Source: Pocillopora damicornis
Taxonomy: Eukaryota
DNA length: 64,000 bases
Direction: 5' to 3'
NCBI RefSeq assembly: GCF_003704095.1
Contig: NW_020845304.1
Span: 248,001 to 312,000, forward strand
Shown: positions 11,501 through 63,850 of the stretch, in pieces
How the letters are laid out: each line of letters begins with the position of its first letter
How positions within the stretch are numbered: position 1 is the stretch's first letter
Translations under genes and position numbers: made by a program
Notes under the pieces: generated by a model
What the model was told of the DNA's origin: nothing
Databases searched by the model: none
The model's input: only the letters and a program-made list of their open reading frames with translations

Positions 11501-12497
11501 CTGTTAATATCCGATGCACCGGTTACGATACTGCTAAGAAAAGTTATGATCCTTGGTGATATAGAACCTGATTAAATTTCGAAGTTATGGGTTCCGTGAC
11601 ACTTTGTCAAAGAGCTCATTATCTTCTTGGATGAAATCACTAATTTTGCTTTTATCCTGAAAGCGAGCTCCACCGATTTTGTTTATTTAGCTAAATGCGA
11701 ATGAATATTGCATAATGTCCGGTGTTCATTTGAGAGAGTTGGTAGGGTTGTAACACCTGTAACTTGCCTTAAGACATAAATTAGTGAGTGGTGGGCGTCA
11801 TTCGCTGTCAATTTAAACAGTGTCTCTGCGTCTTATTCCGAGCAGGTATTAAAGTTAAGATAAAAAGATAAGTTTACTGAGCTAAATGGTTTTCATTTTG
11901 GATTCCCACTGTTATCTGAAGACTGTTCCTGCCACGTATTGACAACTTGGGTTGAATTCAAATGATCCGACGCCTCAAATAGGCGCCCCATTGTAGGAAA
12001 GTCCAAAGATTAAGTCAAGATGTGGGAGGCATTAACTTTGAAAAGTACTCCTTGAAAAACAAACAAACACTAGTGAGGTGTCTGTTACCACTGGGGCACC
12101 AAAGGCTCTTGGGATGCTTAATTATGAGCTTATATAAACAAAAACTATTTTTGATGAAAATCTATTTTCAAAACCAAAATCACCCGATGCAGCTCTCTTG
12201 ACCACAAACACTGAAGGAAGTTTTACATCAGGAAAATCACGCTTGTAACGTCTTGGAACAAAAAAAAGGTCAGCTTCTCGAAGCAAAAATATCGGATTTC
12301 CTCTATCAATCATCATTTTACACAGTGATGACTTTTCCGTCGTGAAGGTACATCGATAGCGGTTCCGTTTTGTACACGCGTAAAAAAAACTAAGATATTT
12401 TCAAAATCGAAAATTTCTGAAGGGCGAACATTGCGAACATGGTCGGCTTTCCGCGATGAGGATGTGCTCTTGATTAGAAGCTGAAACTGTTCACAAG

Positions 12498-13544
12498 ATG
12501 GATAATTCAACTCCAACAAATGCTTCTCTTTCGAACGACGATGACACCGGGTTTAAAATACCCCTTGGTTACCACATCGTGGCCTATTTGGCGATTGTAC
12601 TGGGATTCTCTGCCAATCCCTTTATATGTTTCTCCTTCGCTTATTTCAGACGAGTACGATCCGTGAATAACTATTTTGTTGTCAACCTGGCTGTTATTGA
12701 CATATTATTTATAATTCTCCTCTGTATCCAGTTAGCAGCGCCGGCCCTGCAAAAGAGAATGTCAACTGATAATTTTTATTACTTGAAGGAGACTTTACTC
12801 ATTATAGAACAATTCTGCTACTCAGGATGCATGGCAGCGGTGACCATCATAAGCTATGATCGGTACTATTCCGTCACCAAGCCTCTCCATTACTACACCA
12901 ATATTACCCACACTAAAGCAATAATTTTTATTGCTTGTAATTGGAGTTATGCGACGGTGATGGCATTACTGCAATTGCTCTTTTATCTTCCCAATGAGAA
13001 TTATTTCAAATACGGTTACCTCTCGTTAATGGGACTTACCAATGCAGTGATTCCTTTGTATGTCATACTATATTGCTATATGAACATCTTTATTATCGCT
13101 TCGCGACACCTACGACACAACCCGCACCGTGGACAAGATCAGAATGGCGAAGCTAGTGTGTTCACAAAGAACCTGAAAATAGCATTTCATATCCTTGTTC
13201 TCGTTGCTCCTGTCCTTCTTTTCTGGAGCACTTTCTCCGCTGTAACGATTATAGAGGTTCACTGCCCAGATTGCATACCCAATCATGGTTTTCTGAGTAC
13301 AATAATGAGTATGACTCCAAATGTGATAGCCTCAGTCGATCCTATTATATACATTTTCCTCACCAAAGATTTCCGTGAGATCATTTGTGGCTGGTTCAAA
13401 CTCCACAGGAGTCATCCTTTCTCCGTCAGTGAAACTTTTCACCTTTCAACGACAAAATCAACAAACCCTCAGGTTTTGCCGGCGGCAAAGAGACTCGTCA
13501 GCGAAAGCGGGGATTCTTTGGAGGGTTCTTATCGTCTATATTAA
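12498..13544 (+). CDS. Class A (rhodopsin-like) GPCR, single coding exon, 348 aa
   Basis: Seven hydrophobic segments; TM2 NLAVID, TM3 SYDRY, TM4 W, TM5 IPL, TM7 DPIIY, helix 8 KDFR; N-terminal N-glycosylation sequons. Confidence 0.93.
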   Translation: MDNSTPTNASLSNDDDTGFKIPLGYHIVAYLAIVLGFSANPFICFSFAYFRRVRSVNNYFVVNLAVIDILFIILLCIQLAAPALQKRMSTDNFYYLKETLLIIEQFCYSGCMAAVTIISYDRYYSVTKPLHYYTNITHTKAIIFIACNWSYATVMALLQLLFYLPNENYFKYGYLSLMGLTNAVIPLYVILYCYMNIFIIASRHLRHNPHRGQDQNGEASVFTKNLKIAFHILVLVAPVLLFWSTFSAVTIIEVHCPDCIPNHGFLSTIMSMTPNVIASVDPIIYIFLTKDFREIICGWFKLHRSHPFSVSETFHLSTTKSTNPQVLPAAKRLVSESGDSLEGSYRLY

Positions 13545-51337: not shown

Positions 51338-54300
51338 ATGGCCACAGCTGCTGCTCCAGTGTCATTTTCATCTACTAAAGAGACCACCAATTATGCAAGA
51401 CTTTGTCGTCTCCTGGTTGATGTGGGATCTTATGTGCTGCGAGACAAGTTTGACAGTATTCATCCTCCAACAGATCTTTACAAAGACTTGATAACACATC
51501 ATGCCACACTACAGCTACTTCAAAGGAGGAAGGTTGTAAATCCAACACAATGGGGAAACCTCTACCCTCCAATACGCACCTCAGTATCATCAAAAAACTT
51601 TGATATAACTCTTCTGACAGTCCTACTAAGGAACATTTGTAGCCTAAGTCCACCAGCCACTGGATGGGATGCACTTCCACCTGCCACAGATATGAGCTCA
51701 GAGGCTGACATTGCCCGAGTGAAATACTTCAGAAATACAGTGTATGGCCATGCTGAGAAGGCTTCTGTGGATGATGCTACATTCCATGTGTATTGGCAAG
51801 ATATCAAAGATGCTTTGGTGAGACTTGGAGGGCCTGCATATGAAGTAGCAATTGATAATCTTAAAAATGAGTGCATGGACCCTGTATTTGAAGAACACTA
51901 CAGAGAACTTCTAAAGGAATGGAAGAGAGATGATGATAACACCAAAGACAAACTGGATGAAATTGATCGGAAACTTGAAGAACTGATATTGAAAGCTTCA
52001 ACAAGCACGCCATTGCCAAAAGGTAGATTTTAAATTTACTAATTAAGAGTGGTGAGGACGGAAGGAGAGGGAGAAACAAATTATAATAGAGAAGGGGGAG
52101 GAAAACAGAGGTGGACCTAATTAGGACAGAGGAAACTAAGAAAAATCTCCCAATCTTGTCATTAAATCATATTTTCCATTTCACTTTCCATTTCTACTCT
52201 TTATTTCACTTTTTTTATTCCTTATTTTGTTTCCTTTCAGTTTTTTCCTTTTTCTTCTTTCCCTTGATTTATTCAAATTCTCTTGACAATTCTTCTTATT
52301 TGAAGTATAAAAGGGAGAAAATTAAGCAATCAAACACAATTGCAAGTTTTTGTTTTATTTATTCAGTACCATAATGAAAGCAAAATTAATCCTTTATTTA
52401 CCTAGTTTATCTTAATTTAATTTCAGACGTTGAAGAGCCAACTGAACTTATAGAAAGGATTCGCCAACTTTACCAGACATGCGAAGGACGACTTTCACCA
52501 TTTCCATGGTGTGAGGGCTTCAACTTTGACATTAATGATATATTTACCAGGCCAACCATTGTCAGGCGAGACAAAACTAGACGAACAGCTGCAGAACAGG
52601 TAACCAGCATCACTGGAGTCTTTAAACCTCACAGTGGAATCTCCAAGCCCAGAACTGTCCTGATTGAGGGAGAACCTGGAATTGGCAAGACAACCTACTG
52701 TCAAAAGGTAGTGTATGACTGGGCCAATGGTCAAGAAACTGACCCCTCTTTCCCAAAAATCAAATTGGTTCTCCTGCTCAAATGTCATGACCTGTCAGGA
52801 GACATCTGGGAAGCAATTGATGATCAGCTACTTCCTCGAAACATTGATGAAAAGGCAAAAGAGAACTTCTTCAAATACATCAATGCCAATCAGTCCCAAG
52901 TACTGCTGATACTTGATGGATTGGATGAAGCACCATCTAATTGTACAAAGATGTTTTCTGACCTTGTTGAGAGCAGGGAGCTTCCAAAGTGTCACATCAT
53001 TCTTACATCCAGGCAAGAAGGTAGTGTCAAGATAAGCAAGTTTTGTGATAGCTTGTTTCAAATAGAAGGATTTGCTTCAGAGAATTCTCACAATTATATC
53101 ATGCATTACTTCAAAGACTTGGAGGCACAGGGACAAAACCTTTTGCAGGACATAGAACAAAGTATTGAACTTGAAGAACTGATTGCAAACCCCTTATTCA
53201 CAGCAATGCTTTGCCTTGTTTATGAGGATTTAAACAGTGGTCTGCCTCTAAGCAAGACACAGTTGTATCTTGAAATCACTGAATGCATTCTTAAGAGATT
53301 TTGCCAAAAGCAAGGGTTGCCTCACAATAATGAAAACCTAACTGAAGTTTACAAGGAAGAGCTGGAACAATTGGGAAGTATAGCCTTGAAGGCCTTGAAG
53401 AAAGATAGAATGCATATTGAAGACAGTGAATTTCCCGCCACAACAGGAAAATCACCTCTATTTGAATTTTTATCAGTTCAGTCTAACAGTAGCAAAAGAA
53501 GATCCCAGTCATGCTACCGATTTTCACACAAGAGTTTTCAAGAATTCTTTGCAGGTCTTTATCTCTCTGACCAAATTTTGAAAGGGGAAACAGACTTTGA
53601 GACTCTCCTTGAAAGTGAAAGAGCCACTCTTGAACCAGTCCTTTTGTTCACTGTTGGTATTCTTGGCCATAAAAGAGAAAATAGAGCCTTGTCTCTTTTA
53701 CATATCATTATCAAGAAAGCCAATCTTTTCAAAAACTATAAGTTTCAAAGTTTTTATTTGAGCTTTGCTTTAAAGTGCATTGGTGAATGCTCCACAGAAA
53801 ATTCAGGACTTCGATCCCAGATGACAAATTTGCTAGGAACAAACCTAGAACTTCAAGAGATGATAATATCTGACAAAAGTTTTCCCATTAAGTTGTTTGT
53901 TGAGGCCCTTCAAGTTAACAGCACACTTGCTCATTTATGCATCATGGTTCCATTTTTTGGAGACCAGTTTATTGTGTCATTGGCAAATATACTTCGAGTC
54001 AATAAAACTTTAACTTCAGTTGACTTTTTGACAAATGGTATTGTCAGTGCACATGGTGTGCAGCAACTGGCTGATTCTCTAATGGATAGCAAAACACTAA
54101 ATGACTTACTGTTAAGCGGAAATGCATGGGGCAATGATACAGTCAGGATCTTGGCAGGTTATTTGAAGAGGAGTGTAAGCTTGAGTTCTTTTCATCTAAC
54201 TGATAGTGACATTGGTGATGCAGGAGCCACAGCACTTGCAGAGGTTTTAAGGACCAACACCACTTTAAACAGTTTGGGCCTTTGTGGTAACCCAGGCATT

Positions 54301-55386
54301 GGTAATCCCAGTGTTATGTCACTGTGTGATGCTCTGAAAGTGAACACAACCCTTAGCTCATTAGATTTGTCTGAAACTGGTATTAGTGATGCTGGTGTTC
54401 TTTCTCTTGTGGAAGTTCTCAAAACTAATACCAGCAGCCTAACCTCATTGTTCCTGTCAGATATCAAAATAAGTCATCAAAGTTTAAAGTCTATCGCAGA
54501 AGTCTTGAGAGTCAACTCTACTTTGAAAGACCTTAAATTCGAAGGAAATAAGGTTGGTTTTGGTGGAACAAAGTTGATTGCTGAAAGCCTTAAAGCCAAT
54601 ACAACCCTGAAACTTCTAAGTCTCTCAAGGAACAACATCAAAGCTAAATGTGGCTGTTTATTTTCTGATTCCCTCAAAGTTAATGGGACACTGGAATCTC
54701 TGACTTTGGCAGAGAATGCCCTTGGTTCTCGTGGTGCCCGACTTCTATCAGAAGGGCTCAGAGTGAATACCTCACTTAGACATCTGGACCTGTCTTGGAA
54801 TTCCATTGGCAGTGAAGGTGCAGAGTCAATTGCAGAGACCATCAGAGTTAATGCTTCACTGACCAGCTTGAAGCTAGTAGGGAACAATATTGGTGATCCT
54901 GGAGCCAACAAAGTCTCTGAAGCTCTTAAAGATAATGTCTCTTTGGAGAAACTGGATTTGTCAGGTAATGCCATTGGTGCTGCTGGAGCTGAGTCAATTG
55001 CTGAGGCCCTTAAAAGTAATGCTACTCTGACTATTTTAGACCTTAGTCTTAATGTCATTGGTGATAATGGAGCCCAATCACTTTGTGAGGCTCTTAAGAA
55101 AAATGCCACCTTGACCAAGCTGAGTGTTTCTGACAACAATATCCATTCAGCTGGTGCTCAAGCATTTGATGAGCTCCAAGGACATAATAACACCTTAAAG
55201 AAAGTAGCTATGATCATGAACAATATTGGTGACCTAGGTGATCATGGGGATCAAGAATTTAATGAAGTCCCCATGGGAAGCTGGCCTTTTTTTCCTATTT
55301 CACATGATCTTTCACTGCACTGTACTGATCAAGGAAGCTTTGATGTACTTGTTTCTAAAGAGACTTTGATGCTACCTCAACAGTGA
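51338..55386 (+). CDS. NLR immune receptor: DZIP3-like HEPN + NACHT + RI-like LRRs (NLRC3-like), two coding exons
   Basis: Exon 1, 51338-52022: TTNYARLCRLLVDVG, FDITLLTVLLRNIC, ADIARVKYFRNTVYGHA, coiled coil. Phase-1 GT-AG intron. Exon 2, 52427-55386: Walker A GEPGIGKT, Walker B LLILDGLDE, ILTSR, NPLF, FSHKSFQEFFAG, and roughly 15 28-aa repeats (LxxNxTLxxLxLxxNxIGxxGA). No internal stops. Confidence 0.92.
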
Positions 55387-56844: not shown

Positions 56845-58430
56845 AATATCTAGGGGATTATTAGTTGATCGAAACCAAATTCTCCAAACTTACATTTTAA
56901 GAATTGTGTGACAGACAGTAAGGAGAATTATTAATGAGATTTGTGAGTGAAATGGTTTGGATGAGCTCCAGAAACCTTTTTGGATGAAAAAACCATTCTT
57001 TGATTTGGTGTAATTTTAAAAGTTTAGGTACATAATTTAAGCATAAACTCCCCTCCCCTTCCTTCCCCTGTGGCCCTTACTTGAAATGTACTTTTATTTA
57101 TATATATATTTAGAAGAAACACGTTAAGCTTTGGGTGTGATTATATTTTGAAGAACAATTTAATTTGGAATTGTTTTATTCCAGTGTTGTATGGTGATTG
57201 GAGTGATCATATGTTGGGTGGCGGAGGCACAGGGATGATCCTAATGTCTTATTTCTCAAGTACCAAGACTTGATTAAGGTTAGATTGTGTTTTAGTGTGT
57301 TTTATAAAATTCCATTTTCACACTTATTCATTCAACAACCAAATCAAAGTAGGTTGATATCAGATAGTGCATTATTATATTTTTAATTACCATCACAACA
57401 GGTTGGGGTCTGTCAGTCTTTAGCGAGAGGTGTATCCTTACGAGGTGGTTTCTTTAGCAACAATTATAAGCATGCCAAGGTTTTTTTTCTTTCTTATCCC
57501 TTTTGAATCCCAGCAGTGACTAGCATCCTATTTCTCCTTACAGTGTTACAGCTGAAGCAAACGTCAAGGTTATGAGAATGAAGAAAATGATCACCAACTA
57601 CAGTAGCTTTGGTTATCAAATAAATCCTCCTTGCCAATACCATAACAAATGTAAAGAGAGCAGTATGGANNNNNNNNNNNNNNNNNNNNNNNNNNNNNNN
57701 NNNNNNNNNNNNNNNNNNNNNNNNNNNNNNNNNNNNNNNNNNNNNNNNNNNNNNNNNNNNNNNNNNNNNAGCATGCTTATAATTGTTGCTAAAGAAACCA
57801 CCTGGTAAGTAGACACCTTTGGCTGAAGACTGGCAGACCCCAACCTGTTGTGATGGTTAAATAAAATCTTACACTATCTGATATCAACCTACTTTAACTT
57901 GATTGTTGAATAAATACATGTAAAAATGGAATTTTTTAGAACACAATAAATTACAATCTAACCTTAATCAAGTCTTCATACTTGAGAAATAAGACATTAG
58001 GATCATCTCTGTGCCTCCACCAGCCTAACACATGATCACTCCAATGACCATACGACACTGGAATAAAACAATTACAAATTAAATTGTTCTTCAAAATATG
58101 ATGACACCCATCCACAGCTTAATTTGTTTATTCTACATTATGCCAGAGAATAAACATGCAGGCAGAACAGGGAAGTACATTTGAAGTAAGGACCAGAGGG
58201 GAAGGAAGGAGAAGGGAGGACATTATGCTTAAATTGTGTAGCTTAACTTTTAAAAACTATATACCGAACCCACGGACAGATTTTTTCATCCAAAAAGGTT
58301 TTCGAGTTCACTCTGACCATTTCACCCAAAAATTTCACTAATAATTCTTCTTATTATCTGTCACATAATTCTGATGATGTAACTTCAGAGAATTTGGTTT
58401 AGATCAACTGATAATCCCCTAACAGATATT
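56845..58430. repeat. Diverged inverted duplication (~630-bp arms: 56845-57475 and 57770-58430) around an N gap
   Basis: GGTGGTTTCTTTAGCAACAATTATAAGCATGC pairs with GCATGCTTATAATTGTTGCTAAAGAAACCACC. Similarity continues outward with many substitutions and includes a shared TTAA-MITE segment. Confidence 0.85.
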
Positions 58431-58675
58431 TTCCCTAACTCTCAGTTGTTGTCTGCTAGATATTATATCGATATTGTAAGAGGAAATTCTCTCTTGGTCA
58501 ATCGTGGGAGTAAAAGAGTTATTAAATACATCTTCCTGGTTGACTTGCATACTGTGGGTAACACAGTTGTTTCATCAACACTTAATTTCTGGAAATGTTC
58601 CAAAATCTTTTTCTTTTTAGCCTCTAGGAAAAATCCCTGTCCCATTCTTACCATTCATGCAAAAGTAAAACTCAC

Positions 58676-59253
58676 CTTTCCCAGTTGCAAATAATCTGGC
58701 AAAAAATTCCCATGGACCATTATACCCAGCAAGAGAACCATGTTCCTTCATAAATTCATAAAATGACACAGCCAAATCCTTAGGATTCCGTGCAATATAA
58801 ATATATTTGCACCTTTCGTCATCGCCCTCTCCTTGAGGAATGACATCGTGGGTCAAATGAGAATGAAGAAGCCGTGGACTGGGGAGAGTTGTGACATCAG
58901 CACGGTCACGCTCCAAAAACGAAACTCGGTCAAAAATCATTTTTGTACTTTCTGCGCCGTTATTATACACCTGCCAAAGGATCTCTGAAATCCATGTTGT
59001 CCCTTGAATAAAAATGCATTGCAAATTATTACTTCTTTTTACTTACCTAATCATTCAGTCATAAACACAAAACATTGGCAGGTCAAGCTTCTTTACCTGA
59101 TTTCGGATAAGTCACAACAAACACATCATTGTGTCTTGTTTGGAAATTGATGATCATCTCGCGCAGTGCTGCAGGATTTTTTGTGAAAAAGTCATGAATT
59201 GGAACTCCTTCCAACAGAATTGTTCTTGGTGATGTCCACTCTCCTTCCTTTAC
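58676..59253 (-). CDS. Cytosolic sulfotransferase (SULT1-like), partial (two exons visible)
   Basis: Exons 59097-59253 and 58676-59002 give the 5'-PSB loop DVFVVTYPKSG|TTW, catalytic-His region PRLLHSHL and 3'-PB motif RNPKDLAVSFY. Start and 3' exons are not seen. Confidence 0.88.
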
Positions 59254-59494
59254 CTGGGTANNNNNNNNNNNNNNNNNNNNNNNNNNNNNNNNNNNNNNNN
59301 NNNNNNNNNNNNNNNNNNNNNNNNNNNNNNNNNNNNNNNNNNNNNNNNNNNNNNNNNNNNCAGCTTTGCCCAGTTGCAAATTTATTTATAGTTTTTACCG
59401 AACTGTGTTACAGCAAGTACATTGCGATCGGCCGGCGGTGACCTGCTGCGTTGATTCTTGTGTTGAGTCTTCCGGTGAAAATAAGGTAGCCCGC

Positions 59495-61407: not shown

Positions 61408-63850
61408 ATGTCGCTTAAAGTCTTTGCTGCGATAATTCTGTCCATACCAGCCAAGATAACTGCAGAATCTCCTCGGGGAGTCTACTTTGAAATAAAAGAA
61501 AACAGTTTTCTTTCCGCTGATACTCTTTGGGATAGAAAAGCTGACTCTTTGCTGTCCTGTACACTGCTGTGTGCGAGGGAAGCTGCTTGTGAAAGTGTAA
61601 ACTTCTTGGCAAACCAAAGATCCTGTTCACTCCTTGGAAACGGACAAACACACCTGGCGGAAAAGCTTTTAAAACGACTAGAGGGATCTTTCTATGCGAA
61701 AAAGGTATTTTATCTCGAAAACCGGATTAGGAATCATTCAAATGATGAGCATGTGGCTCTTATTTAAATATTTTAAAACAGGATAATAACATTAAGTGTG
61801 AGCGTTGCGCTTGCAGCGAACGCCAACTTGTTCCAAAACGAGACGTAACAAAACGACCTCTCGACGTGACGCAACTAATGTGTGGGACTGCTTTACAGGT
61901 CGTCTTCAAAGACGAATAAACTACGAAGAACCAAAGTTGACAGTTTTCGACGATTTATTGCATTCAAATAAACGATCGTAAAATGTCGGTCCCGGTTGAG
62001 CCAAGGGTTAAGAATCAAGAAACCTCGAGAGAACGAGGTTGAGAAAGCCACGCGAAATCGAACGAAAAACTACTTTAAAAAGGGACGCTAACTCAGCTTC
62101 TATATGCGCCTGGTAACGCTTAAAGGTCCGATTACAAAACCAATGAGAAAAGAAGTAAACATTGTAACTACGTTCGTAACTAAGATACGGAGATACAGAG
62201 ACAATTATTATGTTATCGAAATAGGCCTTTGTCTAATGTCATTAACAGAGGGATTTTCTATTACAGACTGAACTTCCAGGAATCGCCAGTCCATTGGGTA
62301 GGTCATTAAGAATGTCTCTAGGTATCAGGTCGTTTTGTAATCACGGTCGTTTCGCACCCAATCCCATCGTTATCAACGATAATAAATTCGTTTGATCTGA
62401 CGAAAAAAAAATATATTAGTATTAAGTTGTAATCTATGTTAAATTAGGATGGAATGAAAATATAAATGTTTTCTGGTAGAAATATCCTTCGCGTCTATCT
62501 CATGACTCCCAGACTCCCCATTTTCGGCTCCAGACCTTACACTAGATGATTTGTTTTTATGGACTGAGCTGATAATGTAAATTGGGCATACTCGGTGGTC
62601 GCGCTTCAAAAATGGACACCTCGTTAACAAAGCAAATTTGACGCAGGTAATGTTACTATTCAAAACAAGAAACTGACCTTACTTTAAACAATCTTAACAT
62701 GGAAAACATATTTTAATAATTTTATGTACGAAACGACCGAGCTGGGTACGAAACGACTCACCGACTAGGTACAAAAAGATCGGTTACCTATCTCTATACG
62801 TGGTCATAAACATTCTTATTTCATATGGTTCTACTTGCTCTCTTAGCCGGGTAAAGCAGTGCAGGTGAGATACTAACGGTATATAAGATGGCTTTAGCAG
62901 ATACTGAAAAATATCTTAAATGATTGTAGTTTCTGAAAGAGAAAGCTCTTTCGAGCGGAGAAAACATCTGCATCTATTGAACACAAACTCTGGTCTTGAG
63001 TGAAACATTTTACGTCATCATGTGCGCGTTACCTTCATTAAAGTGATATCTCCCTCAAAAAGAACAAGGCACGCATCGCGACTGGAAAAAAGGTGTAATA
63101 TTGCACTCAGTTGAGCATTTTAAAATCGTAATATTTATCTTTATTATAATCATACACTCAATTTAAGGCCACGTCACACCTTGTATAGGTTCTACTCAAC
63201 TGTCAGCAGTTTCTTCGTGCCAGATCCTTCGCGGCCAACTCCCCTCTCTTTCCTCTGGTGTTTACTGGATCGACCCAGACGGTGGATCCCAGGGCACGGC
63301 TTTCAGGGCCTACTGTGACATGGAAACAGATGGAGGGGGCTGGACTCTTGTGTGGAGCTATAAATTCACTGATTACGATACGTTTTCTTCGAGTTTAAAT
63401 GCTATTACACCGAGGCCGAACTGGCAGATAAATTCTGCTCTCAACGTCCCTGTCTCGGTAACCCCGCCGTTGGGTGAAACAGACTTCAACGCCATGAATT
63501 TCTCCATATGGAAACAACTCGGCAGACAGGTCCTCATCAAAAGCAACATAAACAACTGGCTGGTTTGTCATCCGGGAACTGGAAGCTTGGTTGATTGGCA
63601 GGAAGGGAGCGTCAAGTGTCAGGTCGTTAAAAACGTGACTGACACGTGTCAAGATTCGCCAGCGCCATCTAGGTTTGTGCCGATTCATAGTCAGACCTTT
63701 GGACCGATCTTTTCCTCCTCCAACATTTATTATTATTTTGATGGTTACACATTGATGCACTGGCCTACCCATGATCCTTGTGGAAAAAACGAACTCAACC
63801 ATCTGAAGAATGTCGACAATCCACACGGAAACATTTTCATTCGATCTTGA
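61408..63850 (+). CDS. Secreted PAN/Apple-domain + fibrinogen-like domain protein, three exons
   Basis: Exon 61408-61704 (signal-like MSLKVFAAIILSIPAKITA; PAN pattern CTLLCAREAACESVNF...CSLL), microexon 62267-62297, exon 63189-63850 (SCQIL...SGVYWIDPDGG...YCDMETDGGGWTLVW). Phases 0 and 1 are consistent. Confidence 0.82.
62321..62788. mobile_element. MITE with GGTA...TACC termini, TA flanks and subterminal GTCGTTTCG repeats
   Basis: TA|GGTATCAGGTCGTTTTGTA ... TACAAAAAGATCGGTTACC|TA; GTACGAAACGAC is repeated at the right end. Confidence 0.7.

Follow-up and report, generated by a model that had tools for sequence, protein, structure and literature searches.

HEPN-headed NLRs form the largest coral NLR class in published counts. 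The available sections of PMC3710099 describe the DZIP3/hRUL138 family of HEPN domains as mostly conserving its motif, as fused to NACHT and LRR domains and as expanded in Nematostella and oyster; for the CXorf38 HEPN–NACHT fusions they propose an RNase L-like role or antiviral RNA decay and draw a parallel to bacterial HEPN-STAND proteins. The RNase reading and the analogy to bacterial STAND proteins have been in print since 2013. According to the accessible parts of further papers, NACHT is paired with HEPN more often than with any other partner in nine named cnidarians, at 17-83 proteins in each anthozoan (PMC8260672), the pearl oyster has more than 50 such proteins and keeps the motif in 194 of 202 HEPN proteins (PMC9646362), HEPN-NLRs with a putative function occur in nine invertebrate taxa (PMC8662601), and the orthogroup OG0000015, of HEPN/NACHT/LRR make-up, contains 1093 genes from 11 corals (PMC10236652); excerpts of PMC13581612 and PMC8195603 give side examples only. 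In the literature we searched, which covered few subscription papers, no biochemical or cell-based test of a DZIP3-like HEPN or a HEPN-NLR was found. An earlier note on the locus studied here had said as much, and had also recognised that HEPN-NACHT proteins are known among coral NLRs; they are the commonest anthozoan type. The novelty it claimed is nevertheless overstated, because papers already in print contain the architecture, its interpretation as an RNase, a count of R-x4-6-H motifs and the parallel to bacterial HEPN-STAND proteins (PMC3710099, PMC8260672, PMC9646362, PMC8662601, PMC10236652, each as far as available). What is added here is proof from RNA that the exons are spliced, the finding that the HEPN is conserved while the LRR face varies, and direct evidence of a shared HEPN cassette.

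We analysed a 64,000-nucleotide stretch of a Pocillopora damicornis contig (the window), in which an HEPN-NACHT-LRR gene occupies positions 51338-55386 of the forward strand (Table 1). Translation starts at the ATG at 51338, and the spliced frame of 3645 nt encodes a protein of 1214 aa with no internal stop, laid out as HEPN_DZIP3, helix, NACHT and LRR. The coding part of the first coding exon (51338-52022) is 685 nt long and ends in the phase-1 donor AAG/GTAGAT. RNA data were poly-A and cDNA contigs from four runs of four studies. Both coding exons were covered by RNA contigs in all four runs while the upstream intron was almost bare, and the joint across the GT..AG intron was exact in three of the four (X1, X3, X14); in run X2 the coding exons were joined via a diverged allele. 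This is a real, transcribed NLR gene with two coding exons. The possibility of a pseudogene or mis-joined exons was ruled out by the RNA joint and by the full-length relatives, the closest named proteins among the matches listed being P0015 and P0016 of Stylophora pistillata (76% and 73% identical over the full length), followed by an Oculina patagonica protein at 60%.

The earlier note had called this an intact two-exon gene. The gene is intact and its two coding exons are spliced in RNA, but a 5' UTR exon probably lies upstream: in one of the four runs (X1), an exon ending at 49795 was spliced to 51331 (joint 49792>51328, GT..AG, cut +3), with a short side of 30 letters. Because the spliced leader in this run has an in-frame TAG ahead of the ATG, we count two coding exons and a probable UTR exon; the same TAG ruled out an upstream coding exon, in one run and with the intron partly masked.

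Table 1 Features of the HEPN-NACHT-LRR gene (positions in the window; aa, residues of the 1214-aa product)
Feature	Position	Strand	Basis or remark
Probable non-coding first exon, 3' end	49766..49795	+	Donor CAG/GTTTGT; RNA joint, 1 of 4 runs
First coding exon	51331..52022	+	7 nt UTR, ATG 51338, HEPN and helix, phase-1 donor
DZIP3/hRUL138-like HEPN domain, aa 14-177	51377..51868	+	Pfam PF18738, model, fold matches
R132-N133-x4-H138 (RNTVYGH, aa 132-138), predicted RNase motif	51731..51751	+	End of helix 121-136 and next loop
Long helix (aa 182-222) that may form a coiled-coil linker	51881..52003	+	Model, heptad count
Phase-1 GT..AG intron, 404 nt	52023..52426	+	RNA joint, 3 of 4 runs
Second coding exon, 2960 nt	52427..55386	+	NACHT, HD1, WH, HD2, LRRs, short tail, TGA stop
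NACHT NTPase	52651..53118	+	Pfam; PDB match NLRC4
Walker A GEPGIGKT	52669-52692	+	Within NACHT
Walker B LLILDGLDE	52903-52929	+	Within NACHT
H596 in FSHKSFQE	53527..53529	+	Aligned to NLRC4 winged-helix histidine motif
About 15 ribonuclease-inhibitor-type LRRs, 28-29 aa each	54010..55230	+	Hypervariable concave positions

A local NLR cluster was ruled out, as the contig has one HEPN and one NACHT match. Short repeated elements at ~49520-49570 and 56870-56940 of the window flank the gene, and the depth of RNA contigs there was very high. Directly upstream are pieces of a phospholipase/carboxylesterase (Abhydrolase_2) gene (window 47822-48920, plus strand, partly masked). Elsewhere the window holds two single-frame genes of rhodopsin-family GPCRs (12474-13544 and 19932-20900, plus strand), and sulfotransferase exons and a fibrinogen/COLFI-like frame (58617-59385, minus strand, and 63167-63850, plus strand).

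The first coding exon had been read as a DZIP3-like HEPN with a complete R-x5-H motif, and this reading held: Pfam assigned HEPN_DZIP3 (PF18738) to aa 45-188 with an E value of 1.3e-62 (210 bits against a cut-off of 27), and the R-polar-x3-5-H motif conserved in catalytic HEPN RNases is present. In the AlphaFold2 model, built from 50 aligned exons, the domain was all-helical with a mean pLDDT of 86.6; R132 and N133 close helix 121-136 and H138 sits in the loop that follows, which is where the available text of PMC3710099 places the catalytic motif of HEPN RNases. As for the coiled coil that had been assigned to the same exon, a long helix does appear in the model (pLDDT 59-89), but its heptad pattern is modest, with hydrophobic residues at 7 of 11 a/d positions, and a coiled coil is only possible.

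When the HEPN model was compared with known folds in a wide VIA search, ranks 1 and 2 were both Csm6 (Z 7.7, rmsd 3.5, 112 aligned residues; Z 6.6). Of the 50 rows, 16 were labelled by hand as HEPN-superfamily; these we take to be Csm6 (three times), AbiF, Cas13, AF0298, sacsin, Swt1, MtlR family, YutE, HEPN toxins and Roquin. Since all Z values were below 8, a range that according to the tool can reflect a common helical arrangement, it is the enrichment of HEPN among the rows that we regard as evidence and not the single scores. Foldseek gave no match of the model in the PDB at E 0.001, and searching the PDB by sequence, with exon 1 as well as with its profile, returned chance matches only and no solved homolog. 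The ESM Atlas, with PF18738 excluded, returned DUF4559 (0.87) and HEPN_Swt1 (0.85), which are leads only because both are under 0.9. The Pfam family and the top Csm6 fold matches, though each with Z below 8, point to the helical HEPN fold, and the identity of exon 1 as a HEPN is supported.

The earlier note had proposed a survey of paralogs for conservation of the R and H. There are 95 matches to exon 1 in the genome, and R-x4/5-H was kept in 60 of the 62 primary matches examined, the present gene included (in two of the 60 the alignment had shifted and the motif was read by eye); in the two motif-less exons, S or K replaces R. Across the 50 aligned exons, with a mean column identity of 46%, every exon has H138, and conservation of R132 and N133 reaches 90% or more; in the alignments these three rank with the best-conserved polar residues of the domain. 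The motif was also kept in 139 of 144 HEPN copies from 120 homologs among the matches listed, and kept in 141 and lost in 19 of 162 stretches from the best 150 of 3627 cluster representatives. This conservation bears on the possibility that the HEPN is not an enzyme but binds RNA or acts as an adaptor, for RNA sensing or partner recruitment, while other proteins signal. High in the VIA ranking there were also HEPN folds without catalysis (Roquin, MtlR, sacsin), DED or TRADD-N domains occur on some family members, and the available text of PMC8662601 leaves open whether such a domain is an RNA sensor or an RNase. In the available text of PMC3710099, however, HEPNs without catalysis typically lack the motif; the strong conservation of R, N and H in this family speaks against such a domain, and we consider a non-catalytic role quite unlikely.

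As had been noted, the second coding exon encodes the NACHT and all of the LRRs, with Pfam E values of 4.8e-25 for NACHT and 2.2e-44 for LRR_6. The best PDB match of the NACHT part was NLRC4 (E 1.4e-21), with its winged-helix histidine aligned to H596. Walker A, Walker B, sensor I (TSR) and this histidine are all intact.

The LRR part consists of 14 repeats found by pattern and one added by eye. Compared with the two Stylophora relatives, concave LRR positions were identical at only 20/60 and 21/60 (33-35%), whereas the other non-core LRR positions were identical at 195/271 and 206/272 (72-76%; Fisher p 6e-8 and 4e-9), and two more distant relatives showed the contrast in the same direction. 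The HEPN of the Stylophora relatives is 84% identical, and HEPN and NACHT lie at 81-87%. The RNA contigs differed from the genome at 370 places, 40 of which were displayed and 35 of those were coding; these differences may stem from alleles, a sister species or paralogs. Among them, all three in exon 1 were silent, while 7 of the 13 in the LRRs fell at concave positions and all seven changed the residue. The combination of a conserved HEPN with a variable LRR face fits a putative pathogen-facing sensor with a conserved effector, the contrast being one of identity and not of dN/dS.

Integrated decoys occur in plant NLRs, and the HEPN could in principle be one, mimicking an antiviral RNase so that a pathogen attack on it trips the NACHT. 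The mobility of the cassette, described below, would suit a decoy. The HEPN, however, is conserved (84%) and it is the LRR face that varies, and Pfam found no other N-terminal output domain in the protein, so that a decoy appears highly improbable.

HEPN RNases work as dimers with composite active sites. The intact and transcribed stony-coral gene encodes a DZIP3-like HEPN–NACHT–LRR NLR that probably acts as a ligand-gated ribonuclease; this mechanism is our best guess and is one already published. A foreign or damage signal would be detected by the fast-changing LRR face; the NACHT would then exchange ADP for ATP and associate with further copies of itself, and this would bring the HEPNs together in pairs, two R-N-x4-H motifs jointly making up a site that cuts RNA. 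Invader or host RNA may in this way be lost in the affected cell. We infer these steps of sensing, oligomerisation, dimer-gated catalysis and outcome, and the cell death that may follow, from NLRC4-type NLRs, from the histidine-gated nucleases of bacterial NACHTs and from the HEPN dimers mentioned above.

The earlier note had further suggested that the effector is swapped on a phase-1 exon, and the genome bears this out. The HEPN exon precedes NACHT-LRR exons and also B-box–filamin–NHL exons (loci L031-L034; partly L036 and L037), it stands ahead of TRADD-N with TPR or PARP14-like frames, and HEPN is fused in one frame to STAND-WD40 and to NB-ARC-TPR. At L075 and L078, TRADD-N, KH and Macro frames (PARP14-like) lie downstream of the HEPN exon, and in some relatives DED or TRADD-N domains are paired with the same HEPN (P0017; L070, L075). 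The best-scoring donor of the HEPN exon was in phase 1 at 16 of 19 loci, tied at two and absent at one. RNA contigs of three of the four runs splice the HEPN exon to a B-box–filamin–NHL exon at L034 (6001-9000, minus strand); exon pairings other than this one and that of the HEPN-NACHT-LRR gene were inferred from adjacency. The HEPN–B-box–filamin–NHL proteins are TRIM-NHL-like, with RING not detected, and the fusion is found in several coral species; filamin or NHL domains stood in one chain with HEPN in 26 of 120 homologs among the matches listed, as counted by eye. No paper on a fusion of HEPN with B-box, filamin and NHL was found in the literature searched, and this TRIM-NHL-like fusion is the sole feature not found in print.

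Trees and identities agree with exchange of the exon. In the HEPN tree, six exons linked to B-box–filamin–NHL form a clade (100/99) nested among NLR-linked exons, and an AU test with 23 of the 50 rows, a test chosen after the first tree had been seen, rejected a separate NLR clade (p 0.025). HEPNs with 61-66% identity to that of the present gene are paired with NACHTs from distant clades whose identity spans 26% to 46%, and NACHTs 38-42% identical sit behind a different HEPN-like exon or GT4; the closest NACHT paralog of the gene is only 47-50% identical. Mapping HEPN onto the NACHT tree (21 rows) takes three changes of label, at least two of them forced by starred branches, and two related NACHT exons are preceded by DED exons. 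Among the alternative first exons, the best donor was in phase 1 in all six checked. Taken together, these results support the HEPN exon as a phase-1 cassette moved between sensor scaffolds. Losses could explain part of the distribution of HEPN over the NACHT clades.

Several other exons were seen upstream of related NACHTs. A second HEPN-like exon, with RNDWAH and weak DUF4559/Swt1 matches below the cut-off, lies at L095:3961-4611 and L096:4624-5463 (minus strand), has a phase-1 donor and is followed by NACHT exons 40-42% identical. GT4-conflict glycosyltransferase and DED exons were found at L101:6689-7933, L104:4870-6111, L102:7715-7981 and L103:3932-4285. A SIR2 frame (L109:143-1594) and OTU-like frames (L100:8495-9641) are upstream of NACHT genes by position only. 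No effector exon was identified upstream of the NACHT paralogs L091, L093, L097, L107 and L108, which were kept unlabelled for this reason.

The spread of the exon raises another reading, in which the HEPN is an active RNase but is not switched by a homo-oligomeric NACHT ring: it would pair through its helix, with HEPN proteins of paralogous genes or as one half of a sensor and a helper, and would cut a narrow substrate while the cell survives. In keeping with this, the same exon is found on scaffolds without this NACHT (B-box–filamin–NHL, TPR, WD40 and PARP14-like), the genome has 95 matches to exon 1, and the gene was detected in RNA contigs of all four runs. However, the nucleotide-switch motifs are all kept, and the same histidine gates nuclease effectors in bacterial NACHTs according to the available part of 10.1101/2022.07.19.500537. 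We regard an RNase independent of the ring as unlikely, and prefer the ligand-gated ribonuclease.

A broader interpretation can be offered tentatively, at somewhat less than even chances. One catalytically intact HEPN exon, a shared phase-1 junction and unrelated sensors that cluster may amount to a modular RNase immunity of corals without caspases or death domains, whose sensors would be NACHT-LRR proteins under diversifying pressure and RING-less TRIM-NHL-like proteins in which HEPN replaces the ubiquitin ligase. If true, sensing would be followed by RNA cleavage with no step between, and an animal NLR would carry the nuclease of its output within itself. Should the RNase mechanism hold, intracellular receptors of corals and bivalves would themselves degrade RNA, much like bacterial abortive-infection proteins, which would matter for antiviral defence, control of symbionts and disease in corals. 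The present gene, one of many, is a convenient test case with its two coding exons, its transcription and a known auto-activation site, and the HEPN–B-box–filamin–NHL paralogs provide a second, NACHT-free setting of the same effector.

Compared with known systems, the gene is closest to the DZIP3/hRUL138-like HEPN–NACHT–LRR NLRs of anthozoans and bivalves (PF18738 and PF05729). An N-terminal HEPN_DZIP3, a central NACHT with its motifs and C-terminal LRRs are found in one polypeptide, the domain make-up is that of OG0000015, and the domain order, the R-x4-6-H motif, the expansion and the proposed RNase role are shared; there is no difference in architecture, and the coral gene stands alone on its contig. 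The earlier note had also presented it as a counterpart of bacterial nuclease-effector STAND proteins. It does resemble the bacterial NACHT/STAND nuclease proteins (bNACHT25; HEPN-STAND in the available text of PMC3710099) in the layout of effector, STAND and repeat sensor, in the winged-helix histidine and in effector swapping. However, the tested bacterial NACHT example carries an Mrr-like DNase, unlike the coral HEPN, and swapping in the coral gene proceeds via spliceosomal exons, unlike in bacteria. Exon 1 matched none of the PADLOC profiles, the NACHT gave two weak P-loop-sized matches only (E ~0.002), and the gene did not match a described prokaryotic STAND/NACHT anti-phage profile (Avs, bNACHT); the resemblance is one of analogy only. 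With Csm6, Cas13 and the KEN domains of RNase L/Ire1 the HEPN shares R-x4-6-H at a helix end, Csm6 being the top fold match; a sequence match to them is undetectable, and the putative activator is an NLR switch in place of CARF/cOA, crRNA or a kinase. Finally, the gene shares the NACHT-WH-HD2 core and RI-type LRRs with NLRC4, NOD2 and NLRC3-like vertebrate NLRs, but it carries an enzyme-type head in place of their CARD or PYD.
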